Virus record (IMG/VR): IMGVR_UViG_3300027970_000001
Location: 32,001 to 96,000 of that record
Length of the DNA stretch: 64,000 nucleotides
DNA from: a virus
Strand: one strand, 5' to 3'
The number at the start of each line of letters is the position of its first letter. The first letter of the stretch is position 1. Both the position numbers and the translations under genes were made by a program. Below the pieces are notes generated by a model, which worked only from the letters and a program-made list of their open reading frames with translations, had not been told where the DNA came from and made no database searches. Positions 11,470 through 64,000 of the stretch are shown here, piece by piece.

Positions 11470-12963
11470 CTACTGGGCGAGCCGCTTGGGACGGACGGGC
11501 TTGCCGCCGCATCCAATGCACTGGATGTCGAGCTTACCGTACTCGATAGGATCTCCAAAGATCAGCTCGGCAATAACGTCGGCGCGACGCTCGACGCCAT
11601 CTGGAAGCTTTTGACCAAACAGCTTTTCCAGGTGCTTCTTGCCGTACCTGAAGTCAACCGCGTGCCCGAACTCGTGGCGCATCAGGCCGCGGATGTAGGC
11701 CACGGGCTGGCCTTCAATCTTCGCTGCGAACGCGATGACGATCGGATCACCGTCCATGCAGTACCCGAACTGCCGCTCGGACCCGGTCCCGTTGTCCGCT
11801 GCGGCCTTCTCGTCGTGATGCAGCTCGCAGGTGCCAAAGTCCCCGAACGCCTGCTCCACCACGTCAAAGCACTCGTCGAAGATCTTGGTCGACTTCGGTA
11901 GCGCCGTGCCCGGGTTGCTGGCCATCTCCACGCTGATGGGCAACGCCCCGCCGCTCTGGCTGCCGTGTCCAAAATCGAACATGACCGCGCGTCCGTCAAG
12001 CGCGACCCCCATGTTGCGAAGGTGAACATCGCGAACCACGAATCCCTTGTCGGAGAGCTTCCTCAGGCCAGCGAAAATGTCAGCCATGTACCGCTCCCCC
12101 ACCTTGCTGTGGCGACCTTCCTTGAGCCGGACCGTGTAAAGGTCGTCAAGCTCCTCGGCTGTCATGGGCTGGGAGCTGTGCTCGATGGCCGTGAAGTCCG
12201 CCTCCTCTCGGAAGTTTCTGCAAATTTGAGCGATGGTCTCCCGAATCAGCTTGTTGTTGAGCTTCTCAGACGGCGGCATGGACGGTTCCGGTATGCTCGG
12301 GTGCTTCTTGTCGAACGGGTCAACAAACTCGGTGACGATTGCGTAGAGCGACCGGATCGAGTCCCCGTGCATGCTGCCCGGGAACTCTTCCCTGACAACT
12401 GTGCCGGGCAGCTTCCAGACCTCAAACACTTCGACAAGACCAGGCGACCTTCCCATCCGGCGAACAGCCTCGGCTGCCAAGCCATCATCCCGGTCGTCGG
12501 TCACCTTGAGGACGCGCCCGTCATCCAGCCGGAACGCATGAGCGTAAGCCCCCGCCCCGATGGTTCGCTTCTCAAGCTCGTCTGCTGTCACGCGCTTGAG
12601 CCCGATGCGCCTGGTGAAGTTGGGCACCTCGCGCAGCCGGTCGACCACATCGTCGAGGAACGGGCGGTTGGGCGTGAGGCCGGCTGCCGCGTACATCTGC
12701 TGAGGTCCGAGCGACACGATCTTGGGGTTTGGAGCGAGCCCCGCCTTCGCGCGCTCCTCCATCTTCATGAGGCGCGCGTAGTAGTCGGGGAACTCGCGCA
12801 GATGGTCCAGGGCAATCCGGCCAGCCTGCATCAGGTCGGACGTGTGCTCCTGCTCGGTCTCAACGCCGAGGCGGAACTCGCCCAAGTCGAACCCCGCCCC
12901 GACCTGTCCGAGAGACGCAAGGATGCGCCTTGCCTGATCAAGTCCAACAGACTGCTTGCCCAT
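11470..12963 (-). CDS. Multidomain protein: DUF5661-like + kinase-like + HExxH zincin
   Basis: GVETEQEH..IALDHLREFPDYY; IGAGAY..VLKVT..RDVHLRN..FDFG; MRHEFGHAVD. Confidence 0.75.
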   Translation of the reverse strand: MGKQSVGLDQARRILASLGQVGAGFDLGEFRLGVETEQEHTSDLMQAGRIALDHLREFPDYYARLMKMEERAKAGLAPNPKIVSLGPQQMYAAAGLTPNRPFLDDVVDRLREVPNFTRRIGLKRVTADELEKRTIGAGAYAHAFRLDDGRVLKVTDDRDDGLAAEAVRRMGRSPGLVEVFEVWKLPGTVVREEFPGSMHGDSIRSLYAIVTEFVDPFDKKHPSIPEPSMPPSEKLNNKLIRETIAQICRNFREEADFTAIEHSSQPMTAEELDDLYTVRLKEGRHSKVGERYMADIFAGLRKLSDKGFVVRDVHLRNMGVALDGRAVMFDFGHGSQSGGALPISVEMASNPGTALPKSTKIFDECFDVVEQAFGDFGTCELHHDEKAAADNGTGSERQFGYCMDGDPIVIAFAAKIEGQPVAYIRGLMRHEFGHAVDFRYGKKHLEKLFGQKLPDGVERRADVIAELIFGDPIEYGKLDIQCIGCGGKPVRPKRLAQ

Positions 12964-12982
12964 GTGGCCGCAGCCTAACACG

Positions 12983-14514: not shown

Positions 14515-15276
14515 ATGATGCCGTACGTTTCGACCATCACTCCCCTGGACCTACGTGGCATGGGGCTCGGCACCGAGGCGGCGCGCCCCACCGACGAGGA
14601 AATCGCCCGAGGTCGCCTGGACGCTCAGATTTCCCGCGAGTCCGGCGTGCCGGTGCCGTCGCTGCGAGCGATCCGATCCGTAGAGAGCGGCGGCAACCCG
14701 GCGGCGGTGCGATTCGAGACGCGGGTCTTCAGGAACCGAACCGGCCAGACCGTTGAAGGACACGACCGCGCGGCGTTCCAACGCGCGTATGCGATCAATC
14801 CCCTGGAAGCCGTCAACTCGACGTCTTGGGGATGGTTCCAGGTGATGGGGTTCCACGGCTTCCCCGAGATGTTCGGCGGCCCTGGGCAGGCCGTCCGCGC
14901 GTTCGACGCAAACCCCGAAGAGGTCGGGATGCGCCTGTTTAAGCGGTGGATGGACAGTCCACGCCACGCCGCAGCCAAGCTCGCCGCGCGTACGCTCAAC
15001 TTCGCTCAGTTCGCCAGGTTCTACAACGGATGCGGCGACTCGTGCGAACGATACGCGAGCCGCATGCAGCAGAACTACGACCGCGCGTTGCCTGAGTGGC
15101 GACGGGTGGAACCGTACGTCGGCGGCGGTGGCACGCCACAGGTGTGGCCGAAGTGGTCCTATTGGGCCATCGCTGGCGGCAGCGTCGCTGGGGCCTTGGG
15201 ACTCGTCGGCGGCGCGGCTTACCTGCTGCGCCCGAAGAAGAAGCGCCCCGTCTCGGCTAACAGGAGGCTGCGGTGA
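14515..15276 (+). CDS. N-acetylmuramidase (DUF3380-like) with C-terminal membrane anchor
   Basis: AIRSVESGG, VRFE and STSWGWFQVMGF motifs; C-terminal helix then PKKKRPVSANRRLR. Confidence 0.85.
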   Translation: MMPYVSTITPLDLRGMGLGTEAARPTDEEIARGRLDAQISRESGVPVPSLRAIRSVESGGNPAAVRFETRVFRNRTGQTVEGHDRAAFQRAYAINPLEAVNSTSWGWFQVMGFHGFPEMFGGPGQAVRAFDANPEEVGMRLFKRWMDSPRHAAAKLAARTLNFAQFARFYNGCGDSCERYASRMQQNYDRALPEWRRVEPYVGGGGTPQVWPKWSYWAIAGGSVAGALGLVGGAAYLLRPKKKRPVSANRRLR

Positions 15277-21228: not shown

Positions 21229-21894
21229 ATGCCGATGAAGCACGCGCCTGCATACACGCCTCAGCTATATCTCCCCGGCAGCATGGGGAGGTATCGTACG
21301 TACCCCCGCATGGTGACGACGCCGATTCCGGGGGCTGGGTTCAGCAACGTCGGAAAGCTGGTTTGGGGAGAGCAGGTGCTCGACCTTTCCGGTCGCCATG
21401 GCTTTTACCCTGGCAACTACGAGCGGGTCCCGCTGCGTGGACTGGGCACCGTCGCGTCGCCGTTTGGCGCATCGGTGAGGGTAGTTCCCCCGATCACGGC
21501 CACTCGTGTCGAATGCCGTCGCGTTCCGGCTCCAGAAGGGTGCTACTCGTGCCCGGACGGCTTTGAGCTTAGGCAGTTGACCCCCGGGATGCCCCCGGCG
21601 TGCGTGCGTCCTGGCCAGATGATCGGAGAGGGAGGGTATGCCCCTCCGCCGTCAGATCCTGCCGCAGCGCAGCCGAAGTTCTTCGATGTCGGCAAGGCCA
21701 TCTTCGCCAGCACCCCGGTGCAGAACATCGCTGCGATGGGCCCGATGGGGCAGGAGGCTCTCGTCTCCTACGCCAAGATCACGGCTTTCGGCACCTTTAT
21801 CATCGCCCCGCTGATGGGCGTGGCCGGCTACCTCATCGGCAAGAACAGCAAGAAGATGCAGGCGAATCGCCGCCGCCGCCGGAGCCGTCGATGA
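21229..21894 (+). CDS. Tail-anchored membrane protein with Arg tail
   Basis: LRGLG motif, Cys-rich segment, TM helix, ends MQANRRRRRSRR. Confidence 0.65.
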   Translation: MPMKHAPAYTPQLYLPGSMGRYRTYPRMVTTPIPGAGFSNVGKLVWGEQVLDLSGRHGFYPGNYERVPLRGLGTVASPFGASVRVVPPITATRVECRRVPAPEGCYSCPDGFELRQLTPGMPPACVRPGQMIGEGGYAPPPSDPAAAQPKFFDVGKAIFASTPVQNIAAMGPMGQEALVSYAKITAFGTFIIAPLMGVAGYLIGKNSKKMQANRRRRRSRR

Positions 21895-22259
21895 GCTACA
21901 GCCCCGTCCCTTATCGCCACGCCTCGCTCGGCGCTGGCCCGTCGGCACAGGATACGGGTCAGACCGTCCTGAACGTGGCCAACGTGGTCGCTGGCCTTGT
22001 GCGAGACCCCGAGGGCACCCTCCGTGTCCAGGGCCCGGGGATCGTCAGCGCGGTCGACCGTCATCTTGTCGGTCCCGTCGTCGACTCGGTTGCCCGAGCG
22101 TCTGCTCCCTACGTTCTCCGCTATGTGCTGCCTGCCCTCGGCGTCCTGTATCTCCTATCAGGTGCCGCGGCGTACTTCTCTTTCGAGGTCCTCCGTCAGC
22201 AGGGGGAGCGAAAGATGAGTCCGAACCGGCGCCGCAGGCGGAGGCGCAGGGTGCGATGA
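21891..22259 (+). CDS. Tail-anchored membrane protein with Arg tail
   Basis: ATGA overlap; SLG near the N-terminus; TM helix; ends MSPNRRRRRRRVR. Confidence 0.65.
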   Translation: MSYSPVPYRHASLGAGPSAQDTGQTVLNVANVVAGLVRDPEGTLRVQGPGIVSAVDRHLVGPVVDSVARASAPYVLRYVLPALGVLYLLSGAAAYFSFEVLRQQGERKMSPNRRRRRRRRVR

Positions 22260-31124: not shown

Positions 31125-33120
31125 GCAGGCCCTGGGAGCCGTCGCGGCGCTGAACGCCAAGCTCGTACCGCTCCATGGGCTTCAGGCCGCACTCGGTGAC
31201 GAAGTCGCTCGGATTGCTGGAACCGTAGAGGTCTTCAATGGCCCGGCTGATCCAAAGCTCATCCCTTGCCCGGGTGACGGCGACGTAGAACAGCCGTCGC
31301 TCTTCCGTCTTCTCTGCGTTCGCATGAGGGAAGAGCCCGTTGGCGACGCCGGGAAGAAATACGATGGGCCACTCTCGGCCCTTGGCCGCATGGATCGTAC
31401 TCACGGTCACCACGTTGGTCTGGCGCTTGGACTTCTCTCGGTTCTGCTTGACCTTCTCGATCACGGCGATGGCTTCAGCGTGATCTCGGTACTCGGAGAG
31501 GAAGTCCATCAGCCTGCGCCAGTTCATGACCGGCGAGGCGTCGGACTCCGCGCCCTTCTTCTCAAACAGCTTTGAGAGAGGACCGCCGCCTCCTCCGATG
31601 CTGCTCATGAGCTGGGCTGGCGTCTTGTGTGCGTCGAGGGTCAGCCGCTTGATGGCGTTGTACCAGCGGCCCCCGGCGCCATGCACCTTGGTCTTGTCGT
31701 GGTTCCTGGCAACGACGTCGAGCCACCCCTCTCCAGGGCGCTTGTCCGCCAAGATCAGATCGACGAACTGCTGCCCGATCTTACCGCTCGCCGGGTTCAG
31801 GAGAGCCGTCGAGATGTCGCCTGCGCTCCCTCCTCCGAGGACCACCCGGTACCACGCCAGAGCCGCCGACACCTCGAACGCGTCGAAGTAGATTGGCTTG
31901 GGGCTCTTGATGGGGATGTTGTGGATGGAGAGGGCGACGTCGACATGCGCCGCCTGGTCGGCCGTCCTGACCAGGATGGCCATGTCGCTGAAGTGAAGGA
32001 CGCCGCCCTCGACGTGCTTGATGATGTTCTTGGCGATGGCGTTGGCCTGGTCGGAGAACGTGCCGAACTCGTGGTAGCCCACGTACCCAGGCTCGCCTCT
32101 GCACGCCGAAAGACGAGTCTGTCGCTCGTGGCCCTCCTGGCAACGCTCCAGAACCCGGTTGGCTACGTCCAAGATGTTCTTGCCGGAGCGGTAGTTCTGC
32201 TCCAGTGGGATGACCTTGGCGTTGTCCCAGCGCTTCTTGAAGTTGAGCAGCCGGTCAGGTGACGCGCCTCGGAAACCAAAGATGGTCTGGTATGGGTCTC
32301 CGACCGCCATGTAGTTCCGGTGCGTCTCGCACAGGTACTCTGCCAGGACGTTCTGCGACTCACAGACGTCCTGAGCCTCGTCCTGCATGACGAAGTCCCA
32401 TACGCCCTTCCAGCGCCCCCTGATGGTCGAATCGGAGAGGAGCCAGCAGACGTCGTAGAGCAGCTCGTCGAAGTTGACCCACTTGACCATCTTGGGCGGC
32501 TGCCCCGGAAGCGCCAGCTCCATGCCCGACTTGCGGTACTTCTCGTACAGCTTGTAGGCGTCCAGTAGGGCGCCCGTGCTGTTGCCCGAGCCAACCACCG
32601 AGGCGGCCATTTCGGCCAGTTTGTCGTCTTTCTTGCCCAGGGCTGCGAGCAGCGGGTGAGTTCCGATGAAGTCGTTCTTGACGGCCGAAGAGAACGACTT
32701 GAAGGTGTCCCAGTCGACGTTGCCGTCGATCTGTCGTGCCACACCGAAGAATGCCTGCCTGGTGAACGCGCCCGAGCTGTCGAGCAGGACGTCGGGGTCG
32801 CCGGAGCTTCTGTGGATTTCAAGGGCGAGGCTGTGGAACGTCCTGAACAGTCTGTCCGTGTCCACGTGGGGCAGCCGCTCGTTGAGCCGCTTGCCGACCT
32901 CCTTGGCCGCCGCTTGAGAGAAGGACAGCACCAGGATGCGTTCTGGCCGGATGCCGTGCTTGTTGACCAGCGTGGCGACCCGCTCGACCAGCGCGCTCGT
33001 CTTGCCCGTGCCTGCCAGGGCAGAGACAAATAGGGGCCCGTAGGCGTGGTCGGCGACTAGCTTCTGCTCCGTGTTCAACGACGGGGCCGCTGGCTTCTTC
33101 TTGTTGCTCTTCGCTGTCAT
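31117..33120 (-). CDS. UvrD/PcrA-like superfamily 1 helicase
   Basis: ALAGTGKT, QDEAQD, VGDPYQTIFGFRGA, NYRS, STIHAAKGREW, EERRLFYVAVTRA. Confidence 0.95.
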   Translation of the reverse strand: MTAKSNKKKPAAPSLNTEQKLVADHAYGPLFVSALAGTGKTSALVERVATLVNKHGIRPERILVLSFSQAAAKEVGKRLNERLPHVDTDRLFRTFHSLALEIHRSSGDPDVLLDSSGAFTRQAFFGVARQIDGNVDWDTFKSFSSAVKNDFIGTHPLLAALGKKDDKLAEMAASVVGSGNSTGALLDAYKLYEKYRKSGMELALPGQPPKMVKWVNFDELLYDVCWLLSDSTIRGRWKGVWDFVMQDEAQDVCESQNVLAEYLCETHRNYMAVGDPYQTIFGFRGASPDRLLNFKKRWDNAKVIPLEQNYRSGKNILDVANRVLERCQEGHERQTRLSACRGEPGYVGYHEFGTFSDQANAIAKNIIKHVEGGVLHFSDMAILVRTADQAAHVDVALSIHNIPIKSPKPIYFDAFEVSAALAWYRVVLGGGSAGDISTALLNPASGKIGQQFVDLILADKRPGEGWLDVVARNHDKTKVHGAGGRWYNAIKRLTLDAHKTPAQLMSSIGGGGGPLSKLFEKKGAESDASPVMNWRRLMDFLSEYRDHAEAIAVIEKVKQNREKSKRQTNVVTVSTIHAAKGREWPIVFLPGVANGLFPHANAEKTEERRLFYVAVTRARDELWISRAIEDLYGSSNPSDFVTECGLKPMERYELGVQRRDGSQGLLI

Positions 33121-45247: not shown

Positions 45248-45517
45248 TCAGCGACGCCGACGGCGTCCGTGTTTGTTGAGGCGCAGCGACAGGCCGGCGC
45301 CGCCGGGGCCGACGTTGAGGAACGAGCCGCCCATGCCTCCGCCGCCGCCGCCGAAGCTCAGGATGGGGAACTTGTACGCCAGGTACCCTAGGCCGCCACC
45401 GATGGCCAGAGCGCCAAGGCCAATTGCCATGGCCGTGCTGTCAGACATCGGCGTCGAAGTGGTGGTCGTGGTGGTCGAAGTGAACTGGCCCAGGCTGGGC
45501 GAGTTGAAGTAGCTCAC
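45248..45517 (-). CDS. Small tail-anchored membrane protein
   Basis: SLGQ, Thr run, TM helix, ends LRLNKHGRRRRR. Confidence 0.6.
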   Translation of the reverse strand: MSYFNSPSLGQFTSTTTTTTSTPMSDSTAMAIGLGALAIGGGLGYLAYKFPILSFGGGGGGMGGSFLNVGPGGAGLSLRLNKHGRRRRR

Positions 45518-45723
45518 GAGTGCCTCCGATGGCGACGGCGGTTCTTCTTGAAGATGTGCTCGGTCAGGAGCCGATGCTGGCCCATGACGTTGCCGACAAT
45601 CGCCATGACGATGCCGCCGATGACGCCGCCGAACAGCACCGTCTTGGCTCCACCTGACATCTCAGGGGCGGGCGCAGCGGCGGGCGGGGCAGTGGCAGGC
45701 GCGACCTGGCCGAAACCGTTCAT
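45514..45723 (-). CDS. Small tail-anchored membrane protein
   Basis: MNGFGQ, MSGGA, TM helix, ends FKKNRRRHRRHS. Confidence 0.6.
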   Translation of the reverse strand: MNGFGQVAPATAPPAAAPAPEMSGGAKTVLFGGVIGGIVMAIVGNVMGQHRLLTEHIFKKNRRRHRRHS

Positions 45724-45820
45724 CACGATGAAGCGGGAGTCCAAGGACCTCCCACGGGTCGATAGGTGTTGCATCGCCGTGACAGTATCACAGGTGAAAG
45801 TAGAGCGCCAGGCTCGGCGC

Positions 45821-46594
45821 CTAATCCACCGACAGCACCTTCACCGGAAGGTAGGCGTTGTCAAAAATCACGTACTCGTCCCCACCTGGCGAGTAGCCAT
45901 CGATGTGGAAGGCGCTGTACCCATGGCGCTCTGCAATCGCGGAGATGTCCGATAGGTCAAGCTCGGTGCCGAGGATGCGCTCCACCTCGGCATCGCGAAA
46001 CGCTTCGGCGTTCTCGACGATGCTATCCATGAGGGCTTTGATGCTGTCGGCAACTTGCTCGTCGAGACCTCCTTCGACAGCCTCTCCGAGGGGCTCTTCG
46101 CAGGCCTCGGTGGCCATCCAGTTGCCTTGGCGTAGCTCATCCATTGTGCCCTTGAAGCACTGCTCCACCAGCGGTCGCGTTTCCGTCGGCAACCGCCTCG
46201 CCTGCTCCAGCAGCTCGGGCGTCAGCTTCCATCTGTCCAGGGCCTGCACGCCGAGAGCGTCCTTGACCTCTCCCTCGCAGTCTTCGAGCACAGAGTAGCG
46301 GTGCAGCTCGCCTGTCTTCCTGTCCTTGATATTGAACGAGAAGGGAGATGACCCCGGCGTGTAGATCACCAGCGATTGGCCGCACTCGTACGTGTCCGGC
46401 CCGATCTGGGCGACCAGCTCATCGGGCACTGGCGAGACCACGGAGTGGATGTGCTTGCCGAAGACCGACGCGAAGTCAGGGTCGGACGTTAGGTAGAGGC
46501 CGTACCCCAGCGAACCCGTGTAGCCAGGATCGTTGCCGTCTAGCTCCTCAAGCTCCTCGCTTGAGCCGTGGTACATCACGCTGGGGTCGGCCAT
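45821..46594 (-). CDS. ADP-ribosyltransferase-like (polyvalent ART-type) protein
   Basis: MYHGSS...LGYGLYLT..P.FA..FG and C-terminal DEYVIFD. Confidence 0.65.
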   Translation of the reverse strand: MADPSVMYHGSSEELEELDGNDPGYTGSLGYGLYLTSDPDFASVFGKHIHSVVSPVPDELVAQIGPDTYECGQSLVIYTPGSSPFSFNIKDRKTGELHRYSVLEDCEGEVKDALGVQALDRWKLTPELLEQARRLPTETRPLVEQCFKGTMDELRQGNWMATEACEEPLGEAVEGGLDEQVADSIKALMDSIVENAEAFRDAEVERILGTELDLSDISAIAERHGYSAFHIDGYSPGGDEYVIFDNAYLPVKVLSVD

Positions 46595-46802: not shown

Positions 46803-47149
46803 TCAGTCGACCTTCACTGCGCCAGCGGCGATGGGGTCGAAGCCTTGGGGCCAGACGGTTTTGTCGTTCCACTCCGCGCCCTTCAGGTTGGCCCCGGTCA
46901 GGTCGGCATTGCGAAGGTCGGCATCGATCTCCCCGCCTGGAACATCTCACGCATCGCCCCCCGCGACGCTGACGCTTCCTCGGACGCCTGAGCGTAGGAC
47001 GCTTCTTCGATTTCTCGCCACGGCTCATCGATGCCGATGGTGTTGAAGATGACGCTCAATGTATCGAGCACCACCCACGGCTGCTTCTCACCGTAGAGCT
47101 TCTGGATGTACTTGAGACGGTCGATGGGCGGGTTCTGGGTCAGCATCAC
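46803..47149 (-). pseudogene. Frameshifted ORF: paralogue-family leader (46898-47149) + pentapeptide-repeat C-terminus (46803-46946)
   Basis: MMLTQNPPIDRLKYI in frame 1; ADLRNADLTGANLKGAEWNDKTVWPQGFDP in a start-less frame; one extra G at the 46931-46934 run would join them. Confidence 0.6.
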
Positions 47150-48117: not shown

Positions 48118-48441
48118 TCAGCGGCGCGAGGTCTTGCGCTTCGAGGTCTTCTTACGCTTCGACGACATCAGGCTCGATTCGAGCCGGCCACGACGCTCGG
48201 GAGCGGACTTCTTCGAGGTGCGCTTCTTCGAGGCAACCTTCTTGGAGGTGGCCTTCTTGGAGGTGCGCTTCTTGGAGGTGGCCTTCTTGGAGGTGCGCTT
48301 CTTCGAGGTCTTGCGCTTGGAAGCCCGCTCTGCCTTGCGCGAGGCGGCCTCCGCGAGCTGATCAACGCGAGCGAATAGACGCATCAGTTCCTGCATGCGA
48401 GAGATCAAGCTATCTTTCGAGGGCAACTTCTTCTTTGCCAC
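48118..48441 (-). CDS. Histone-H1/protamine-like basic protein
   Basis: (K/R/A)TSKK pentamer repeats encoded by 15-bp repeats; GGAG SD before GTG. Confidence 0.75.
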   Translation of the reverse strand: MAKKKLPSKDSLISRMQELMRLFARVDQLAEAASRKAERASKRKTSKKRTSKKATSKKRTSKKATSKKVASKKRTSKKSAPERRGRLESSLMSSKRKKTSKRKTSRR

Positions 48442-48525
48442 CGTCTTGCTCCATTCAAGGCGTCCGCAAGATGCGGCGCTCGGAGGCCCACCGTATCACA
48501 AAAGAGTCACGCATCAAACTCGGGG

Positions 48526-55343: not shown

Positions 55344-56216
55344 TCATTCATCGAACCTTGGGGGAACCGGGATCGTGTTGCCTCTGATCTGGCAGTCGAC
55401 GGCAACGAGCCGGATGTCATTCGATGAGAATCGCATCTCGCACTCTTGCGGGATGTCCTCGCTCCGCGCGCCCTGCTTGATAGCCGCCTGCACGATGCTG
55501 AACTGGCTCGGCGAGAGATTCAGGTACTTCTTTGCAGAAGCGGTGAAGCCGACCAGGGGCATGCAGACGCCGCCGTCCCACCAGTCGTCCACGGCGAACG
55601 TAGACCGCAGACGGGTCTCGACAAACTGAGCCAGCTCGTACCTGCGCTCGGGAGTGTTCCAGCGCCGGTTCAGGTCATCCCGCTGCTCGTTGACCATCTG
55701 CTTCCAAGGGCCTCCGTGCGAGAGCGACTGGATGTCATCAGGGGGCTCTACGCCTAGCGTTGCGCACAGGTCGCCGAGGTCTTCCGACGCCCGATCCCAT
55801 CCATCGGCTTCGGCATCCTCCCAGTTGTTTTCCCAGATGTCGCCGGGGAATCCTGTCCATTCGAGGGTCAAGAGCAGCACGTCCGACGCATCGCCGTCTT
55901 GGGCCGCAACGAGGAGTCCGCGCATCGACGAGAACAGCCACATGGCTCGCGAGCGGCTGATCACGAAGCTGACCCATTTGCCGCTCGGATCGCTTGGCCC
56001 TCCTCCAAGCCCCACGATCCCCGTCTCAGATCGAGACTTGAGCCCCTGCTTGAATACTCGGTCGCGGTTGGTGGTGACGTGGAAGAAGCCCGCGTCGTCT
56101 TCGGGGCAGTAGTCCTCTAGCACAGTTCCCTCGACCCAGTTGTATGGGTCGAGCAGGAACGTGGCGTCGCGAGGCGGGATCGGATTGCGGCGGGGCCGGC
56201 GCGAGGTGCGCTTCAT
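55344..56216 (-). CDS. ART-fold-like protein with N-terminal RTS tag
   Basis: MKRTSRRPRRNP; FFHVTT...GLKSR...GGGP...VSF. Confidence 0.5.
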   Translation of the reverse strand: MKRTSRRPRRNPIPPRDATFLLDPYNWVEGTVLEDYCPEDDAGFFHVTTNRDRVFKQGLKSRSETGIVGLGGGPSDPSGKWVSFVISRSRAMWLFSSMRGLLVAAQDGDASDVLLLTLEWTGFPGDIWENNWEDAEADGWDRASEDLGDLCATLGVEPPDDIQSLSHGGPWKQMVNEQRDDLNRRWNTPERRYELAQFVETRLRSTFAVDDWWDGGVCMPLVGFTASAKKYLNLSPSQFSIVQAAIKQGARSEDIPQECEMRFSSNDIRLVAVDCQIRGNTIPVPPRFDE

Positions 56217-56234: not shown

Positions 56235-58196
56235 TCAACGACGGCGGCGCGAGGTGCGCTTGGAGGTGCGGCGGTTCTTGGTGATGACCGGATCTGCCGG
56301 ATCGAACGTACCCTCGTTCGGCCCCGACCCAGCGATGACTTCGCCAGCCATCGCTCCGAGCCCCGACTGTTTGATGGGGCCAGCGGCGGCGGACTTCGCC
56401 TGCGTGGGACTGAACCACACGTAGAGCGTGGCCGACTTCTTACGGCCACGGCCGAAGTTGTCGTTGTAGTAGTCGACCACGTCGTGGACGATTAGTCCGT
56501 CAGCGCCCTGTTCGCGGGCCTTGGCGATCCACTTTTCGGTCCCTCTCCACTCCTTGCCGCCCCAGTCGATGGAGAGCGGGCTCTGGATCGACAGGTAGAG
56601 CGGGATTACTCCTGGCTCGGCGTTCTGGTAGTCCCAGGCCCGATTCGCATCGGCGTAACTTGCCGCCATCGCGTAGCTGTCCGTCGCGAAGAAGGCGTCG
56701 CCGCGCATTGGGCTGCGCCGGAAGCCCTCGGAGAAAATGCCCCGGCCGTCGGGCGTGCCGTGGTAGACGACCAGAGGCGCATTACCCTTGCGGCGGTCCC
56801 TGACCTTGCTGTCCTTGAACCAAGCCTTAAAGGATGGCGTCTCGGTCATGCCGGGGTTCCGCAGGATGCTCAAGTCGTCGGGATCGAAGGTGCCCACGTT
56901 GTCGGTGGCCGACTTGATCTGCCGAGGGTCGAAGACAACGTACTCGTCGTATCCGTGGACCGAAACGATCACGCCGTCGATGCCCGCAGCAGCCATGCCA
57001 CGGATGACGTCCTCTTCCGTAAAATAGACCTTGAACGCTGCGGAATCTGCGAGGAACAGGAACGCCCTGCTGGGGTCAGCGAGGCACTCGCGCATCAGGC
57101 GTCGATGGTCTTCCTTTGCGTCGTATCCGCTTGGGAAGCGAGTCGTCTTGATGGCAGAGAAGAACCGGCGGATCTGATCGGCCGTCATCTCGCCTCTTGT
57201 CGGCCGCTCGATTCGCAGGTAGGTGGCAATCTTGCGCCCGCTGTCGCCGTGGAAAGCCCTCAGCGTGGTGGGATCTGCGCTGAAGTAGAACCCAGGCCCG
57301 AACCTATCCATGCCAGGCGTCGCCGGTCTTTTGAACACGTCAAAGTCGCCCCGGGTGCCGTGGTACAGAACCAGCGGCTCACCGTTCTCATCAACGACCT
57401 TGCTGTCCCCGAACCAGCGGCGGAACGCCGGGTTGTCGAGCGGGCTCGGTCCGTTGCGATCCATCTCGTTTGAGGTGCCGATGATGAGCGCGTCGATGAA
57501 CCGCTGGCCGCGTTGGACAGCCAGCGTCACCCGATGATGCCCATCGTGGACGTACCACACGTCTTCGCCCACCACGGGGAAGTGCCCGTCGAGGAACGGG
57601 TACTTCTCCTCGGGGTAGTCGACTTCTTCGACCTCGCCGGGGCCGTCGAGGATAACTGGAGGCAGCTCGTAGCCCTCGTCCTCAAGCTCGGCCAGCTCGT
57701 CGATGCGCTCTTGGCGGATGGGGTTGATGAAGGGGGATGCGATCTGACTCACCGGCACGCGCTGGATAGCGAAACCCCGCGCGTACTGCGGGATCTGCCC
57801 GTACTCCTCGTCCCACGGAGGGTTTTTCGACATCGCAGACGAGCGGACCCACGCGGCGCCCGATCCACTCTGATCTTTGCTGGCCTCGATGGGTCCATAA
57901 TCTGCGATTGCCGCGGAAAGCAGCTTGGAGGCCACCCCCGTCCGCCTGAAGGAAGGAACCACGTACACGTTCGCTGCGATGGGCGCTTGGCCTGTTCGCT
58001 CCACAATCTGCAACGCTCCGATCGGCTCTCCATCCGCGTACATCACGTACCTGACGCTACGACCGAAATAAGAGTGCTCGCCCAGGAACTTGGCGATGCC
58101 GCGGGCCACAGGGCGGCCCTTCTCTTTTCCGATCTGAGCCACACCGCTCGGGCGACCGACAAGGTACTCAAGTCCTTCGTTGTACTCTTCGCTCAT
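56235..58196 (-). CDS. Four-domain polyprotein: GNAT + ParB-like + ART + ART, with Arg tail
   Basis: YVVPSFRRTGVASKLL; VHDGHHRV; two SKV.D..G.PLV.YHGT...VF.P.QIKSA modules; ends ITKNRRTSKRTSRRRR. Confidence 0.8.
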   Translation of the reverse strand: MSEEYNEGLEYLVGRPSGVAQIGKEKGRPVARGIAKFLGEHSYFGRSVRYVMYADGEPIGALQIVERTGQAPIAANVYVVPSFRRTGVASKLLSAAIADYGPIEASKDQSGSGAAWVRSSAMSKNPPWDEEYGQIPQYARGFAIQRVPVSQIASPFINPIRQERIDELAELEDEGYELPPVILDGPGEVEEVDYPEEKYPFLDGHFPVVGEDVWYVHDGHHRVTLAVQRGQRFIDALIIGTSNEMDRNGPSPLDNPAFRRWFGDSKVVDENGEPLVLYHGTRGDFDVFKRPATPGMDRFGPGFYFSADPTTLRAFHGDSGRKIATYLRIERPTRGEMTADQIRRFFSAIKTTRFPSGYDAKEDHRRLMRECLADPSRAFLFLADSAAFKVYFTEEDVIRGMAAAGIDGVIVSVHGYDEYVVFDPRQIKSATDNVGTFDPDDLSILRNPGMTETPSFKAWFKDSKVRDRRKGNAPLVVYHGTPDGRGIFSEGFRRSPMRGDAFFATDSYAMAASYADANRAWDYQNAEPGVIPLYLSIQSPLSIDWGGKEWRGTEKWIAKAREQGADGLIVHDVVDYYNDNFGRGRKKSATLYVWFSPTQAKSAAAGPIKQSGLGAMAGEVIAGSGPNEGTFDPADPVITKNRRTSKRTSRRRR

Positions 58197-58855
58197 CGGT
58201 CTGACCGCTTTAGGTTCTGCTCCCAGAACTCGTACCCCTTGAGGTACATGTCGACAGGCACGCCGTTGACGCCTACCAGGAACTCGGCGGGCACGGCCTT
58301 CCAGATGGCCACCACGCCACCAGGGCGCGGCGGGTCGTACAGCCCACGCCCGTGCCGGAAAGAGGCCCCCACGGCGCCTCCCCAGCCTTCCCAATCGTGG
58401 GGCACATCAAACACGACCCATGACGTGTACTTGTTGTAGCGCGCTCCAGGGTCGCTCGGATCGAACGCGACGAAGAACACCAGATCTGGCGCTTCGCTGT
58501 ATTGGCCCACGCCACGGGGTGAGGCGACGAGGCCCTTGGCGATGATCGAGGAGAGCACGTCGGACTCGGACTTCATGCCCTCGGGCAGCTTCAAGATGCT
58601 GTGAACCAGCCTCGTTGCGTTCGACGGCACCGGAGGCAGAAGAGCGTTCTCTTGCTGCGCATCCATGGCGCCTCGGAGCGCATCGATCATCTTGGTGTTG
58701 TCGAAAAGCTCGTCCTCGGTTAGCCCGAAGACGGGAGCGATGCGCTCGATAAGGTCAAGCGACTGCATCAGGTCGCCCTCGCCTGCCTGCCAGCCGGCGA
58801 AGATGGAAGCGAGGGTGTCGCGGGCGTCGATGTCGATGCTTGCCTGATCAGTCAC
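58193..58855 (-). CDS. Two-domain protein with ART/2'-phosphotransferase-like C-domain
   Basis: GTGACTGA overlap start; VPSNA junction then LVHS...SIIAKGL...VFF. Confidence 0.45.
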   Translation of the reverse strand: MTDQASIDIDARDTLASIFAGWQAGEGDLMQSLDLIERIAPVFGLTEDELFDNTKMIDALRGAMDAQQENALLPPVPSNATRLVHSILKLPEGMKSESDVLSSIIAKGLVASPRGVGQYSEAPDLVFFVAFDPSDPGARYNKYTSWVVFDVPHDWEGWGGAVGASFRHGRGLYDPPRPGGVVAIWKAVPAEFLVGVNGVPVDMYLKGYEFWEQNLKRSDR

Positions 58856-60497
58856 GGTGGCTCTTGTTCGGGACGATCCGGCGCACATTCAAGCCAGAAT
58901 CCCACGTTCGGAAAGGAAAATCCTTCAAAGGCTCCAGAGGACTGACCGTGTACTTCTTCGGCAGGTCGTCGTAGAAGCTCTTGGGCGGAGTTCCGCCAAT
59001 CCGCTTGCGGCTGACGAAGTCGGGCACGAGAACCTGGCGGTACCGGTTCGCGAACGCCCACTCGACCACGATGTTCAGCGCATCCGAGGCGAACGTGGGG
59101 AAGTACATCTCGCGGAGCAGCTTTTGGACTGACTCTGGCTCATCAATAAGCCTGAACTCCATCCACGGCCTGTCAGACTGGATTTCGACGATCACCAGGC
59201 CAGTCGGCGGAGAGACCGCCATTCGCACCCATCCGATGGCGTACTTGACCCTCTCGTCAGGATGGCCGTCTTGTTTGAAGAATGCGTTGTGCAGGTTGTT
59301 CGTGACGTACTCGCGAGCGTCGTCAAGGTTTACGCGCCACGGCTTTTCAGTCGCCTGCCGCATGGCCTCTTCCGTCACCTCATCGATGACAGCGTTCGGC
59401 ACGGCCAGCACGAGCACGTCCTCTGTTTGAGGTCCGAGCATCTGCGTGCCGTGACCGGAGTGGTAGGTGATGCCGCCGAATACGTCGTACCGAGCGGGCG
59501 ACAGCGACTCGAAGCTCATTTCGACCAGCGCCTCGTCGGTCGCCGGAGGGGAGATGCGGAGCACCTCTTTGGTGACGGGATGCTCAAGCAGGTCCGGCCT
59601 GTGCTCGGAGACCAGCTTCTTCGTCAGCTTGCCGTCCTTTGACTTCAGGTTTGCGATGCGTGCCAGCTTGCTCAAGGCCCACGACCTGGCGGTCCCTGGC
59701 TGGAAGTCACTCAGGATGAGTTCCGGCGTGCCGACGGTGAGATCGTTTGGGCGGGCGCCCCACCATCCCGCGATCGGAGACGGCGTGTATGTCTCGCGAA
59801 GGCCAGCGGGCACGGGGAACTGTTCTTGACGGAAGCCTTCCTGCTCGTCGTCATCTTCATCATCCGGCGGTGCATCGCCATCTTCGTCTTCGCTTAGATC
59901 GTCGACAATCGTGAATCCGACGCGCGGTTCATCGCCAATGCCCTCGCGCCGCTGGCGGCTCTCGGCAGTAAAAGAGACTCCAGCGCCTTGCCGGACAACG
60001 GAGCGCGGTGGAAGGCGGGCTCCGCTTGGAACGTGGGACACGGCTCCGATGGTCGACTGAGCGCCGATCACGCATCCCGAGCCGACCTCGGCGCCATCGC
60101 CGATGGTCGTCATGTCCCCGATCTGAGCATCCTCTCCGACGTATGCTTCAGCCCCCACATCGACGCCCATGCCAATGGACGCGTCTTGGCCGATATCGCC
60201 GCGGATGTCTGCGTGAGCCTCGATGCGGGCCCCGTCGTGAATCACGCCTTGCAGAATCGCGGCGATCGCCACCACGCCATCGCCGATGGTGCAGGGCTCC
60301 ACGATGACACACTGTTCGAGACGGGAGTGGCCGATCGACACGTTGCCGTTCGGCGCGATGATGACGCACCGGTCAAGCTCGGCGCCCCATGAGACCTCTG
60401 CTGAGCCTTCGATGCGCTCCTCGAAGGGCATGGAGTATCGGCGGTTCCAAGCGGGGTCTCGCTTGCGGAAGTCTTCGATGGGGTTGCGGCGTGTCAT
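58848..60497 (-). CDS. Left-handed beta-helix (hexapeptide repeat) + EIQSD-motif domain protein
   Basis: MTRRNP start; IGxxAxIG hexapeptide repeats; acidic linker; GWVRM..IVEIQSD; ends IVPNKSHRD. Confidence 0.7.
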   Translation of the reverse strand: MTRRNPIEDFRKRDPAWNRRYSMPFEERIEGSAEVSWGAELDRCVIIAPNGNVSIGHSRLEQCVIVEPCTIGDGVVAIAAILQGVIHDGARIEAHADIRGDIGQDASIGMGVDVGAEAYVGEDAQIGDMTTIGDGAEVGSGCVIGAQSTIGAVSHVPSGARLPPRSVVRQGAGVSFTAESRQRREGIGDEPRVGFTIVDDLSEDEDGDAPPDDEDDDEQEGFRQEQFPVPAGLRETYTPSPIAGWWGARPNDLTVGTPELILSDFQPGTARSWALSKLARIANLKSKDGKLTKKLVSEHRPDLLEHPVTKEVLRISPPATDEALVEMSFESLSPARYDVFGGITYHSGHGTQMLGPQTEDVLVLAVPNAVIDEVTEEAMRQATEKPWRVNLDDAREYVTNNLHNAFFKQDGHPDERVKYAIGWVRMAVSPPTGLVIVEIQSDRPWMEFRLIDEPESVQKLLREMYFPTFASDALNIVVEWAFANRYRQVLVPDFVSRKRIGGTPPKSFYDDLPKKYTVSPLEPLKDFPFRTWDSGLNVRRIVPNKSHRD

Positions 60498-60499
60498 GG

Positions 60500-62221
60500 T
60501 CAGCGTGCCTCTCTGCTCGTCCGGCGCTTCCGGTTCTTCTCGATGCCGCGAGAGCTGAGCCAGTCGAGGACATCCTGAAGGTCGGTCGACTCGTTGACAT
60601 CCATGCCCTCGGTTTCTTCGGGCGAGATGCCGCGATCGATCAGCCTGCGCACCGTCTCCGGCGTGAACTCGGTGTCCGACCCGTCCGCAGCATCCTCGGT
60701 CATCCACTCGAACGCCACGTCGGGAGAGATGCCCTGCTCCGCCCACTTCTTGACGTCTTGGTAGTCGAAGGTCGGGTCGACTTCGATGAATCCGGTCGCA
60801 ATCCAGTCCTCCGCAGGGAACACGAGGAGCCCCTTCGATCCCTCGCTGTCGGGGTAGAAGCCCTGGTGCCTCCACACATCGGAGATGGCTTTGCGCTTTT
60901 TGATCTGAGCTGCGCTCATCGAAGGCGGCGATACGTCTACGCCTGGGAGTGAAGCCTGACCGGCGGGCGAGAAATATGGCGCAGCGGCGGCAAGACTTGA
61001 TGCGATGCGGCCGGTCTTGATCAGACCTTCCGTCCTTCGGCCACCGTCGTCCTCTTCGATGGCTCTCTGCACCGCCCACGGGAAGTCGCGGAACTCTGCT
61101 GGCGAAACGTCTTCGCCAAGCATGCTTTTGACTGACTGATACGCCGTGAAATAGACTCCTTCGTCCATCCACTCCATGAAGTCAGAGACGTTGCGAACGA
61201 CCTCAAGCCACTTCGTTGCGTAGCCCTCAAGGTGCTCTTCGTCGATCCAGTCGACGTTTTTCTGTGCCCAGTCGACGATCGCTTGAATGTCAGGCGGGAG
61301 CTTCTTCACGTTCAGCGTCGCCATGAAGCTATCGACGTACTTCTTGTACTTCTCGGCAGGCGTCTTGTTCTGCTTGCCGAAGGTCTGGATGGCTTTGTTG
61401 AGGTTCTCGTTCCACTCGATCGTGACGTGCGGAAACCCCTTCGGGTCGCGGATGGAATAGAGCACCGAGTCGCTCATGCGAGCGCGACCGCAGTGCTGCA
61501 TTGCATCCTTCTCTTCTTCGCAGTAGGTGCCGGGAAGTAGCTGAACGGTCCAGCCGTCGTCGAAGGTGTGGGCAATCTCGTGCTGCGTGGGAGGCTTCTT
61601 GCCGGACGAGTCGAAGTCCTCGATCGCCTCCTTCACTTCGTCGAAGCTCATCGACGTGAGGTTCGGCTTTTCCTTCTCGGCCCACTGCCCGATCGCAGTG
61701 CCGCGCGTCTTGAAGAACCGAACGGCCTCAACATACTCGCGAGCCTCTTCGATGATGTGGGGCGCAATGCGATCGCCATCGTCTCGCCGCGTGGCCTGGA
61801 GGGCAGTCACGACAGGCTTGGCCTTGTCTGCCAACTGCTTGGACATCCAAAGGAACGTGCCCTCGGACTGGTTGCGCTCCTTGAAGCCTCGTAGCTCGGA
61901 GACCATCTCGACGAGGATTGGCGTGGCTTCGGCCACCTCGTTCTTGAGTGAGGTGAAAAGCGGTTCGGTTGTCGTGTAAATGACCCTCTCGATGAGGCGG
62001 CTGGCTCGGTATGCCGAGTTGATCTCAGCAGCGTCGTCGGACATGGCGGCTTCGCCCATCGCCTTAATGGCGGCGTCGGTGACGGCCGTCTTCCAGCCGT
62101 CTTCGCCGACGGTGTGGGCGATGACGTCGATCATGGAGAACGTCACAATCGGGTACTTCGCGTACTGCTTGGCGATGTACCGAAGCCGGTCGGCCGGCGG
62201 ATTCTGTTCAAGCCTGGTCAT
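60500..62221 (-). CDS. PcfJ-like domain protein (close paralogue of 5326-6957)
   Basis: MTRLEQNPPADRLRYIAKQY; DAMQHC..SVLYSIRDPKGFPHVT shared; ends IEKNRKRRTSREAR. Confidence 0.75.
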   Translation of the reverse strand: MTRLEQNPPADRLRYIAKQYAKYPIVTFSMIDVIAHTVGEDGWKTAVTDAAIKAMGEAAMSDDAAEINSAYRASRLIERVIYTTTEPLFTSLKNEVAEATPILVEMVSELRGFKERNQSEGTFLWMSKQLADKAKPVVTALQATRRDDGDRIAPHIIEEAREYVEAVRFFKTRGTAIGQWAEKEKPNLTSMSFDEVKEAIEDFDSSGKKPPTQHEIAHTFDDGWTVQLLPGTYCEEEKDAMQHCGRARMSDSVLYSIRDPKGFPHVTIEWNENLNKAIQTFGKQNKTPAEKYKKYVDSFMATLNVKKLPPDIQAIVDWAQKNVDWIDEEHLEGYATKWLEVVRNVSDFMEWMDEGVYFTAYQSVKSMLGEDVSPAEFRDFPWAVQRAIEEDDGGRRTEGLIKTGRIASSLAAAAPYFSPAGQASLPGVDVSPPSMSAAQIKKRKAISDVWRHQGFYPDSEGSKGLLVFPAEDWIATGFIEVDPTFDYQDVKKWAEQGISPDVAFEWMTEDAADGSDTEFTPETVRRLIDRGISPEETEGMDVNESTDLQDVLDWLSSRGIEKNRKRRTSREAR

Positions 62222-62649: not shown

Positions 62650-62718
62650 GGTCGGCTCTCCGGGTAGTCGTCACGATGGGTAGCGCCGGGATGATAGCTC
62701 ATGTCATCATCATTGCCC

Positions 62719-64000
62719 ATGGCTACCAAGCGTACGTCCCGTCGCCCCGTGTCCAGAAACGCCGACGGCGGCAGCCTCGCCGTGCCCCCCGATCCGGCTT
62801 TCATCGAACGCATCGAGAGCGTGGACGATCACCTTTCGACGCCGGGCCAGTATTACACGACGACCGGGCAGCAGGCGTACCTCGTCGCGCGCTCGATGAC
62901 CTGGCACCCGATGGTTGAGGCCGGCGAGGAGACCTACTTCGCAGAGGGGTCCGTCTTTCACTGGACGGTGCTGGCCGATGAGAAGTCGGCCACGTCCGAC
63001 GTGCTACCGGTCGAGCTTCTGAACGAGAAGGTCCAGATCGAGCAACTGTCTGATGCTGTGTCCAGGCTTGGAAAGAACGCCATGCGCCGAAACGGCGATG
63101 AAGGCGGCGAGGACTGGGGCGTCACGGAGAGCTACTTCCTCGACAAGCTGGATGCCTATGACCGATGGGAGTCGGCTTTCTGGCGCGAACTGCTGCAAAA
63201 CAGCAGGGACGCCGGAGCGACGAAGATCGAGCTTTCCTCCGAGGAGACGACCTATTCAGATCCGGCGACGGGTGAAGGTCTGCCGGCGGTGCTTTGCGTC
63301 TGCCGCGACAACGGCGTCGGCATGGACAAGGAGACGCTCAAGCGCGCCTTCTTCACGCTCGGCGGCTCGATGAAGCCGGCCGGCGCGGTGGGCGGGTTTG
63401 GGGACGCCAAAGAGCTGATCCTCACGCCGTGGTACCGATACGAGGTCCGCACGCGAGGCCTGCTGGCCATCGGGCAGCACCAGCGCCTCTTCGCCCCGGG
63501 GATTCGGAGCGGTGAGCCGTTCGTTCAGGGCGTCGAGATCCGCGTATGGATGCCGGTCCACAAGAGCACGAACGACAGCTACGCCGTCGGAGTGCTTGAA
63601 AAGAGCCACCTGATCGGCATTCGGGTTACGGTCAACGGGCAGCGAGTCAGCGCCGACCTGATTGGCGGCGACAAGGTCCGCGAGCATCCGATCACGATCA
63701 CCACGTTCACCGTGTCGTGGTCGGAGCGCGGGGAGGGGCGAACCCAGAGCTTCGCGTACAGCGACGAGTTCTACGAGTTCACCAATGGGCTGAGCCGCAA
63801 GGGCATCGCCTACGACACGTCCAGAGAGCAGAAGGAAGTCGGCAGGATGGAGATCTGGCGTCAGCCGCGCTCCAAGCGCAACGGCTGTTTCGTCCGAGGC
63901 TCCGGCGTGTTCATGTTCGAGAAGAGGGTCGACGCCAACATCAAGGGCGCCATCTTCGTCGACATCACCGCCCCGCCGCGCGGCGTTTTCACCCGCAAGC
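62719..64000 (+). CDS. GHKL (Hsp90/MORC/gyrase-type) ATPase, 3'-truncated by the window edge; absent from the ORF track
   Basis: My translation: MATKRTSRRPVSRNA...LGKNAMRRNG...RELLQNSRDAG...CRDNGVGM...GGFG; no stop before base 64000. Confidence 0.8.
   Translation, partial: MATKRTSRRPVSRNADGGSLAVPPDPAFIERIESVDDHLSTPGQYYTTTGQQAYLVARSMTWHPMVEAGEETYFAEGSVFHWTVLADEKSATSDVLPVELLNEKVQIEQLSDAVSRLGKNAMRRNGDEGGEDWGVTESYFLDKLDAYDRWESAFWRELLQNSRDAGATKIELSSEETTYSDPATGEGLPAVLCVCRDNGVGMDKETLKRAFFTLGGSMKPAGAVGGFGDAKELILTPWYRYEVRTRGLLAIGQHQRLFAPGIRSGEPFVQGVEIRVWMPVHKSTNDSYAVGVLEKSHLIGIRVTVNGQRVSADLIGGDKVREHPITITTFTVSWSERGEGRTQSFAYSDEFYEFTNGLSRKGIAYDTSREQKEVGRMEIWRQPRSKRNGCFVRGSGVFMFEKRVDANIKGAIFVDITAPPRGVFTRK

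Follow-up and report, generated by a model that had tools for sequence, protein, structure and literature searches.

An asparagine-ended junction motif and portable arginine-rich tags in a GNAT-ParB-ART-ART polyvalent protein of an uncultured phage-like element

The 64,000-nucleotide stretch analyzed here, positions 32,001 to 96,000 of the IMG/VR virus record IMGVR_UViG_3300027970_000001 (hereafter the window), encodes a 653-aa protein in which a GNAT acetyltransferase, a ParB/sulfiredoxin (Srx)-fold module, two ADP-ribosyltransferase (ART) modules and a short arginine (Arg)-rich tail follow one another, with a hydrophobic-x-x-asparagine (Asn) motif at each of the four borders (Table 1). Comparison with the predicted genes of sister genomes shows that this gene arose by in-frame fusion of cassettes that are separate or otherwise combined elsewhere, and the Asn-ended motif, with a basic tag beyond it, recurs at the termini of other proteins in the window. 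The full reading placed on these observations, to which a probability of roughly 0.4 is assigned, is that the protein is a cassette-built polyvalent effector that would be addressed to the viral particle by its tag and cut at its Asn sites to free the modules. The gene had been singled out in a sequence-only reading of the window as the strongest single-gene support for such a processing model; it provides good, though not decisive, support for the motif-and-tag pattern, and that genome-wide pattern is more interesting than the single gene.

Domain composition and cassette origin of the 653-aa protein

The order GNAT, ParB-like, ART, ART and tail, proposed from the letters and translations, is confirmed by Pfam for the GNAT and ART regions and by fold comparison for the ParB-like region. 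The GNAT region matches the Pfam families Acetyltransf_7 (28.7 bits against a cut-off of 27) and Acetyltransf_1 (25.7 bits against 20.7) over residues 46-99, RRTGVA at residues 84-89 fits the acetyl-CoA motif A (Q/R-x-x-G-x-G/A), and a model built from a deeper alignment gave GNAT fold matches in Foldseek at probabilities of 0.94-0.99. These matches span just ~57-61 residues and therefore identify a minimal GNAT, stand-alone homologues of which are numerous and 120-150 aa long. Both ART modules fall to the ART-PolyVal family (PF18760), which is matched in two stretches at 131.5 bits against a cut-off of 31.2 (E = 4.7e-38), and both are modeled with a predicted local distance difference test score (pLDDT) mostly >90. 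They share their fold with PARPs, tankyrase, ParT, MbcT, RES toxins and diphtheria-type toxins (for module 2, the tankyrase, ParT, MbcT and RES toxin matches run over residues 454-615), and the top fold match is 9k3a_B, a chain of the packaged pre-ejectosome of cyanophage A4 (Z 8.6). The active site of ART-PolyVal proteins is formed by a His on strand 1, a Tyr on strand 2 and an Asp on strand 5 (PMC5512222). By alignment and by eye these were assigned to H279, Y304 (within GFYFS) and D407 in module 1, where the columns of H279 and D407 are nearly invariant, and to H479 and D566 in module 2, where Phe replaces the Tyr (AFFATD), as it does in orthologues. The two modules are 36% identical over the N-terminal half, and the 12-residue tag that closes the protein (residues 642-653) is predicted to be disordered (pLDDT <50), the rest of the protein being acidic.

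The ParB-like module was recognized neither by Pfam or PHROGs nor by a profile search of PDB sequences, and the ESM Atlas offered no more than a weak pointer to ParB_N. Fold comparison of the full-length AlphaFold model aligns residues 137-240 to SerK (5x0b, Z 7.2) and to plant and human sulfiredoxin (6.7, for 6ky4, and 5.5, respectively), with further ParB/Srx fold matches to SbnI (5.7), Osa (5.1), PadC (4.7) and KorB (4.4). These Z values are moderate, and on the basis of this model a ParB/Srx fold is accepted for the region, which is probably an NTP-dependent nuclease-like module. A second AlphaFold model, of residues 1-250, was poor in the ParB part, and Foldseek on that model matched GNATs only. 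The DGHHR motif is invariant across the family alignment, and the module is portable, being 74-97% identical across at least seven different fusion partners.

Exactly the same 653-aa protein is encoded by 22 contigs (JGI, Logan, ENA and the GEM catalogue), which are up to 139 kb long, and the fused frame is therefore genuine rather than a product of assembly. The supposition that tagged genes had been fused is well supported by split and re-fused relatives of >90% identity, in which the breakpoints fall directly after the Asn codon. One relative, P0002, is 97% identical and starts MAEEWDEEYGQ; it is a ParB-ART-ART-tail protein without the GNAT, and the gene upstream of it is an orthologue of the window's 231-aa gene, which indicates that the GNAT is an in-frame cassette present in one genome and absent from its near twin. 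In the same 90% cluster, three 414-aa proteins (P0274, P0275, P0277) are encoded by ART-ART-tail genes that start MKRTSRPRRN-PSPLDNPAF, where the 653-aa protein reads ..NEMDRN-GPSPLDNPAF (the hyphen follows the junction Asn), and on the contig of the split ART-ART gene (L012) the ParB module is joined to a different domain via ..SSRMEPN-PRYPF. When the DNA of such variants is aligned, the Asn codon is the point immediately after which homology begins or ends on each side.

The internal MSKN-PPWDEEYGQ of junction 1 is matched by the start of P0033 (MPRRN-PPQWDEAYGQ) and by ..KPRRN-PSEWDEEYGQ in P0129, a further relative reads VREN-PDWDE at this position, and GNAT homologues also terminate in ..GRKN-P or ..WKAN-P. 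At junction 2 the Asn is constant in close relatives while its neighbors vary (MDRN, MERN, MKQN, MEPN). At junction 3, ILRN-P leads into a different domain in P0003-P0005, and the gene of P0010 begins at ART module 2. Stand-alone homologues, whose search had been proposed as a check, exist for every module.

The sequence-only reading had placed hydrophobic-x-x-Asn at all four borders, and the peptides are as it gave them. The loose motif is not enriched in the protein, with 6 sites where ~4 are expected; folded regions contain two of these, IAAN in the GNAT and VDEN-G in ART module 1. A tighter form, hydrophobic-x-[K/R]-N-[P/G/R], which was defined after seeing the data, occurs in exactly four copies, all at borders, and none of 10,000 shuffles reached three. 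The expectation of disordered linkers at the motifs was borne out at N125, which falls within stretches of pLDDT <50 in both models (residues 65-126 of the full-length model and 106-128 of the second), and at N248; N447 and N641 lie at the ends of coils modeled at ~80, with the disordered tag following N641. Burial of the motif Asn inside folded domains, which had been named as grounds for abandoning the processing model, was not seen, as the four Asn appear by pLDDT to sit in linkers or at borders between order and disorder.

The Asn-ended motif and Arg-rich tags in the window and the ART-PolyVal family

Across the window, for which a rough gene set of 87 proteins was used, Asn directly precedes the basic C-terminal suffix in 9 of the 23 proteins that have one, against 1.4 expected (simulated P ~1e-6), and M, I, L, V or F stands at position -3 in all nine, against a base rate of 31% for Asn residues. 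The pattern hydrophobic-x-x-N-[RK]-[RKSTH] has 13 of its 18 sites in the last 25 residues of proteins, a zone that holds 11% of all residues. Tags at the N-terminus likewise end in Asn (MKRTSRRPRRN-P and ..KRTSRRPVSRN-A), and [RKQ]N[PA] is ~3x enriched in the first 25 residues of window proteins; Asn thus stands between tag and cargo whichever terminus is tagged. Unrelated proteins, both of the window and of relatives, bear tags of the [KR][KR]TS[KR][KR] type at one terminus or the other. Within the window, effector-like and membrane/lysis-like proteins carry tags; the helicase, the integrase, the ParB-like partition protein, the methylase and the glycosyltransferases have none. The codons of the motif vary (AAC or AAT for Asn; CGC, CGG, CGT, AGG or AGA for Arg; CCG, CCC or CCT for Pro), which places the constraint at the level of the protein and led to the rejection of a DNA-level repeat as the cause of the motif. 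A Tat signal was also considered for the N-terminal tags and rejected by eye, there being no hydrophobic core after the RR.

At the level of predicted proteins, these patterns show a directional boundary signal that is under selection in the lineage: each cassette ends in or follows hydrophobic/Pro-x-x-Asn, succeeded by Pro, Gly or a basic residue, with an Arg-rich tag of the KRTSRR type beyond the Asn at one or the other terminus. Membrane proteins use the same Asn/Arg code, as judged from the translations of four genes that place it after a C-terminal membrane helix (Table 1) and end in VSAN-RRLR, MQAN-RRRRRSRR, MSPN-RRRRRRRRVR and FKKN-RRRHRRHS; one of the four encodes a muramidase.

The ART-PolyVal family offers a view of the motif beyond the window. 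Among 115 ART-PolyVal tails taken from homologues, the end position is Asn in 43, Ser in 34 and Gln in 14, and the 43 tails of the Asn type are followed by Pro in 33 cases and by Gly in 5. A basic tract comes after 15 of these 43 tails against 1 of the 72 others (Fisher P 7e-7, uncorrected for shared ancestry). Where a basic tract is internal, a second Asn typically closes it, as in N-PRRARRN-P, N-PPRRKRKN-P and ILKN-RRTSRPRRN-PELL, and at the position of the last of these P0062 has a plain ILRN-PELL. Alignment of the tails identifies the terminal Asn as a lineage-specific variant, in place of Ser or Gln, of a family-wide tail. Two cultured phages with ART-PolyVal proteins, Caulobacter phage Jess A and Pseudomonas phage F116, have no Asn at the tail end and no tags, and the Asn/tag pattern seems confined to uncultured lineages.

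Table 1. Features of the 653-aa protein and of membrane proteins carrying the same C-terminal pattern; positions refer to the window.
Feature	Position	Strand	Details and basis
Whole coding sequence	56235..58196	-	Single ORF, 653 aa + stop; GNAT, ParB/Srx, ART, ART, basic tail
Minimal GNAT core	57882..58106	-	Residues ~31-105; motif A RRTGVA at 84-89; Pfam and Foldseek
Junction 1, MSKN (N125), then PPWDEE	57822..57833	-	pLDDT <50; aligns with leaders/junctions of relatives
ParB/sulfiredoxin-fold module	57477..57818	-	Residues 127-240; DGHHR at 218-222; VIA-align fold matches
Junction 2, MDRN (N248), then GPSPLD	57453..57464	-	Residues 241-248, pLDDT <50; breakpoint of split/fusion variants
ART-PolyVal module 1 and conserved tail	56856..57443	-	Residues 252-447; H279, Y304, D407; PF18760
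Junction 3, ILRN (N447), then PGMTET	56856..56867	-	End of ART tail QIKSAxxNxGTFDPxDxxIxxN; coil, block pLDDT ~78
ART-PolyVal module 2 and tail	56274..56849	-	Residues 450-641; H479, Phe at the Tyr position, D566; second Pfam stretch
Junction 4, ITKN (N641), then RRTSKRTSRRRR	56274..56285	-	Border of ordered tail (631-640, pLDDT 81) and disordered tag
C-terminal Arg-rich tag RRTSKRTSRRRR	56238..56273	-	12 residues, net charge +8; translation and charge count
C-terminal membrane helix, hydrophobic-x-x-N, Arg run	14515-15276, 21229-21894, 21600-22259	+	
C-terminal membrane helix, hydrophobic-x-x-N, Arg run	45514-45774	-	

Genomic setting and neighboring genes

The open reading frame (ORF) of the 653-aa protein begins with an ATG that shares ATGA with the stop of the upstream 231-aa gene, and it lies within a long same-strand gene run (~44.5-62.6 kb of the window). 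The window has a G+C content of 61-65% and one tRNA-Leu, and it encodes an integrase, a helicase, a ParB-like partition protein and glycosyltransferases together with matches to virion structural protein families (the PHROGs search covered 10 large ORFs, 5 of them among 30 window proteins scanned with Pfam) and genes for an amidase, an M23 peptidase and a membrane-anchored muramidase. It looks phage-like in appearance. The neighbors of the locus include PcfJ, GP88, DUF192, a second ART, AcrVA2-like, SNF2 and DUF5824 proteins. Near relatives were sought among 50,697 phage records by DNA, by the ParB module and by the helicase, and none was found, the helicase staying below 30% identity; IMG/VR yielded distant relatives only. 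Stepping along contigs gained ~11 kb beyond the window, in which no structural module was reached, and an HK97-type prohead protease (PF04586) was not found in three IMG/VR records that carry the ParB module and belong to a different lineage, so that this negative carries little weight.

Further genes in and around the window carry the motif, the tag or one of the modules. The next gene downstream (55344-56216, -) encodes a 290-aa protein without a Pfam match that starts MKRTSRRPRRN-PIPPRD. In a relative, a look-alike recognized by eye (L002, 4287-6008; ..VFHATT..GLKSR, with the N-terminal tag KRRTSRAPKPVTSN before P) is joined to the orthologue of the 231-aa gene on its upstream side, and the 290-aa module would then be another cassette that changes place. 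A divergent stand-alone ART-PolyVal-like protein of 257 aa (45821-46594, -; MADPSVMYHGS.. ..DEYVIFD) is encoded in the same operon, with a Pfam E value of 9e-4 that is under the cut-off. The left-handed beta-helix (hexapeptide-repeat) protein of 58848-60497 (-) starts MTRRN-P and ends ..RIVPN-KSHRD, without a long Arg tag. The genes at 60500-62221 (-) and 46898-47149 (-) share the N-terminal segment (L)xQNPPxDRLxYIxKxY, in which the "NP" seems to belong to the start of a conserved domain, and the 573-aa product of the former ends ..GIEKN-RKRRTSREAR. A small Lys/Arg/Ser/Thr-rich protein with repeated K[KR]TSK[KR] units (48118-48495, -; start codon uncertain) looks protamine-like and could condense DNA.

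On the opposite strand, a 1,143-aa protein with a HATPase_c_3 match (a GHKL/MORC-type ATPase) runs from 62701-64000 (+) on into L013 (2047-5478) and carries the N-terminal tag ..KRTSRRPVSRN-A. Past the window end follow an AcrVA2-like protein, an SNF2 helicase, a DUF5824 protein and a DnaJ protein, and the region around the ATPase and beyond the window looks like an anti-defense neighborhood.

The ParB-like module has two further settings. On a 137-kb IMG/VR contig (L011, 1-6357), an ORF of >2,100 aa with a lytic-transglycosylase motif ends in the same ParB-like module (70% identical), so that the module also occurs in classic giant proteins of the phage-ejected kind; this ORF is without the Asn/Arg-tag pattern. 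In a metagenomic protein (P0134), the module is followed by ..PREN-P.. and by a zincin HExxH domain with weak ATLF and Peptidase_M78 matches, which links it to the processing peptidases predicted for polyvalent proteins.

Within the window, a 503-aa protein (11470-12981, -) has DUF5661, a kinase-like region (..VRDVHLRNMG..MFDFGHG..) and, at its C-terminus, a zincin-like HEFGH motif, with LAPN-P, LTPN-R and MASN-P at apparent domain borders. It is a possible processing peptidase of the kind predicted for polyvalent proteins.

Proposed processing, rival explanations and known systems

In the full reading, the Arg-rich tag would address the protein to the DNA-filled particle, from which it would enter the host together with the DNA. 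The tag would be taken off at the Asn, either by a maturation protease that has this residue at P1 or by self-cleavage that depends on it. Cutting in the same way would part the modules of fused forms, whose new N-termini would begin PPWDEE.., GPSPLD.. and PGMTET..; after entry, the enzymes may modify host proteins or nucleic acids. Delivery of this sort is indirectly hinted at by the pre-ejectosome chain among the ART fold matches and by the giant L011 protein that ends in a ParB module. Cleavage of the 653-aa protein at its own junctions is put forward tentatively, with chances somewhat short of even. More doubtful is a wider reading, close to the original proposal of one packaged precursor, in which uncultured GC-rich large bacterial viruses would load dozens of unrelated effector and membrane proteins by means of Arg-rich tags, an Asn-specific activity would remove the tags and part the cassettes, and the 653-aa protein would be a true polyprotein of four enzymes. 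The excised Arg-rich peptides might then remain as counter-ions of the DNA, like adenovirus Mu.

Several points weigh against cleavage. Pro is the residue that most often follows the proposed cut site, and most endopeptidases tolerate it poorly there. Pfam scans of 30 further window proteins revealed no Asn-specific protease and no capsid, portal or terminase, and the only peptidase-like candidate in the window is the HEFGH region, a weak Peptidase_M57 match (E = 0.004). One site of the hydrophobic-x-x-N-G type, VDEN-G (N271), sits inside the well-folded ART module 1. ILRN and ITKN occupy paralogous positions of the two ART tails (GTFDPxDxxIxxN), which leaves three independent sites, not four, so that a count of four borders makes the sites look more independent than they are. 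The ART-tail motif may be just structural, given that it belongs to a family-wide tail (..DIR[YF]S) modeled with fair confidence. The statistics on relatives ignore shared ancestry, and many polyvalent proteins, among them N4 vRNAP, ArdC and TraC1, act uncleaved (PMC5512222).

Another reading is a fused polyvalent protein that is never cleaved, in which Asn-Pro/Gly would mark hinges or former gene ends and the Arg tail would be a permanent nucleic-acid or packaging anchor on one multi-enzyme polypeptide. This is quite possible, if not favored: several polyvalent proteins are documented to be delivered uncleaved (PMC5512222), architectures with more than one ART and a GNAT neighbor are standard, Asn, Gly and Pro are common in linkers, the ART-tail motif varies a family-wide tail modeled at a pLDDT of ~80, and the window proteins scanned yielded no Asn-specific protease. 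What it leaves unexplained is that the residue between tag and cargo is always Asn, and no other small polar residue, at both termini, that the -3 position is hydrophobic in 9 of 9 cases, that internal basic tracts are bracketed by two Asn, and that the Asn stays constant while its neighbors drift.

It is improbable that the window belongs to a conjugative element (or to both kinds of element) whose Arg-rich C-terminal tails act as type IV secretion-like signals, with the Asn motif unrelated to virion maturation. About 40% of polyvalent proteins come from conjugative elements (PMC5512222). PcfJ, SNF2 and DUF5824 are among the neighbors, and the reachable sequence showed no capsid, portal or terminase. 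VirB/D4-type secretion is known to use positively charged C-termini as signals, and the C-terminal tags could be taken for such signals; against this, the same tags also occur at N-termini, the window has an amidase, an M23 peptidase, a membrane-anchored muramidase, an integrase, a tRNA and matches to virion structural families, none of the ORFs scanned was seen to encode a relaxase, coupling protein or VirB4, and the Asn is left unexplained.

The motif is very unlikely to be a by-product, either of coding microhomologies (..CGC AAC CC..) that guide shuffling or of ATGs at M122, M245 and M450 from which the modules would be translated separately. The breakpoints do coincide with CGCAAC, and the junctions do lie at or near a Met, as had been claimed, M122 and M245 standing 3 residues before their Asn and M450 3 residues after, with M450 aligned to the real start codon of P0010. 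Against a by-product, M450 is Ile in the 97%-identical P0002, the motif codons differ between sites, the internal ATGs show no distinguishing ribosome-binding pattern (genuine operon starts show none either), and neither variant explains the Asn before C-terminal tags.

Polyvalent proteins are a major and barely tested arsenal sent into cells with phage or plasmid DNA, and for the loading and release of their modules the only suggestion so far is a predicted role for zincin peptidases. The locus described here constitutes a natural experiment, in that genomes nearly identical to one another join, separate and rejoin the same modules, in every case at a motif ending in Asn, and the modules bear a short transferable basic tag. 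No description was found, in literature coverage that is incomplete, of an Asn-ended boundary motif with portable Arg-rich tags that coincides with fission and fusion points, nor of an Asn-specific prohead protease or Arg-rich capsid-targeting tags. Should cleavage take place at the motif, viral maturation would gain a new specificity, with Asn at P1; virion cargo could be predicted in metagenomes by a simple rule, and foreign proteins could be loaded into phage particles with a compact module that combines tag and release. Without cleavage, the protein would belong to a known class as an ordinary member.

Self-cleavage at Asn-Pro by Asn cyclization is known from reovirus mu1 (between N42 and P43), from FlhB/YscU (N before PTH) and from the asparagine peptide lyases. 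The Asn-Pro bond, the commonest pair here (33 of the 43 Asn-type ART tails), would likewise be the scissile one, although the known cases need a folded environment, whereas the Asn sites described here are in linkers and have Gly, Arg, Lys or Ala after them as well. In adenovirus, adenain cuts (M/I/L)-x-G-x before G, the basic peptide pVIc takes part and Mu is released from pre-Mu. Common to both systems are a hydrophobic residue 3 before the cut-site residue and basic segments, DNA-bound in adenovirus, that are or would be excised on both sides, as in N-PRRARRN-P. Adenovirus is a eukaryotic virus with Gly in place of Asn at the specificity positions and no homology, and the comparison is an analogy only.

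Polyvalent proteins are recognized by at least two domains of disparate activity in one polypeptide, here the GNAT, the ParB/Srx-fold module and the two ART-PolyVal modules, and by residence on a phage or conjugative element among other such domains, as seen in the window genes and neighbors; the 653-aa protein itself belongs to this class. It shares with the class the combination of unrelated enzymatic domains in one strongly mosaic polypeptide, ART-PolyVal modules (H-Y-D type in the class) in one or more copies with a GNAT neighbor and ParB-superfamily modules, and the PcfJ, GP88, DUF5824 and SNF2 neighbors (PMC5512222). GNAT beside ART, multiple ART copies and ParB-superfamily modules are thus already described, and the view that GNAT, ParB and ART domains are typical of polyvalent proteins agrees with that account. 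Processing by zincin peptidases has been proposed for the class, and DdrB of P1 is processed (PMC5512222). Unlike described members, the protein has a ParB module that matches no Pfam model, DdrB-like included, and no zincin peptidase domain in its own polypeptide, and its locus has for the most part "exploded" into individual genes; that paper likewise gives no description of the Asn-ended boundary motif or the portable Arg-rich tags (PMC5512222).

The closest worked-out precedent is found in T4, in which a 10-residue capsid-targeting sequence (CTS) loads unrelated proteins into the head and is removed by gp21 at L/I-x-E, and in which the packaged ADP-ribosyltransferase Alt is trimmed at both ends (PMC9026906). 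The T4 CTS is N-terminal and not Arg-rich, and the residue at P1 is Glu, whereas the tags here are strongly basic and occur at either end, the motif is also found between domains, and Asn at P1 would apply. Alike in both systems are a short portable terminal peptide that directs, or would direct, unrelated cargo to the head and then is, or would be, cut off at a short, directional motif, and the sharing of that tag among fast-evolving anti-host proteins that include an ADP-ribosyltransferase.

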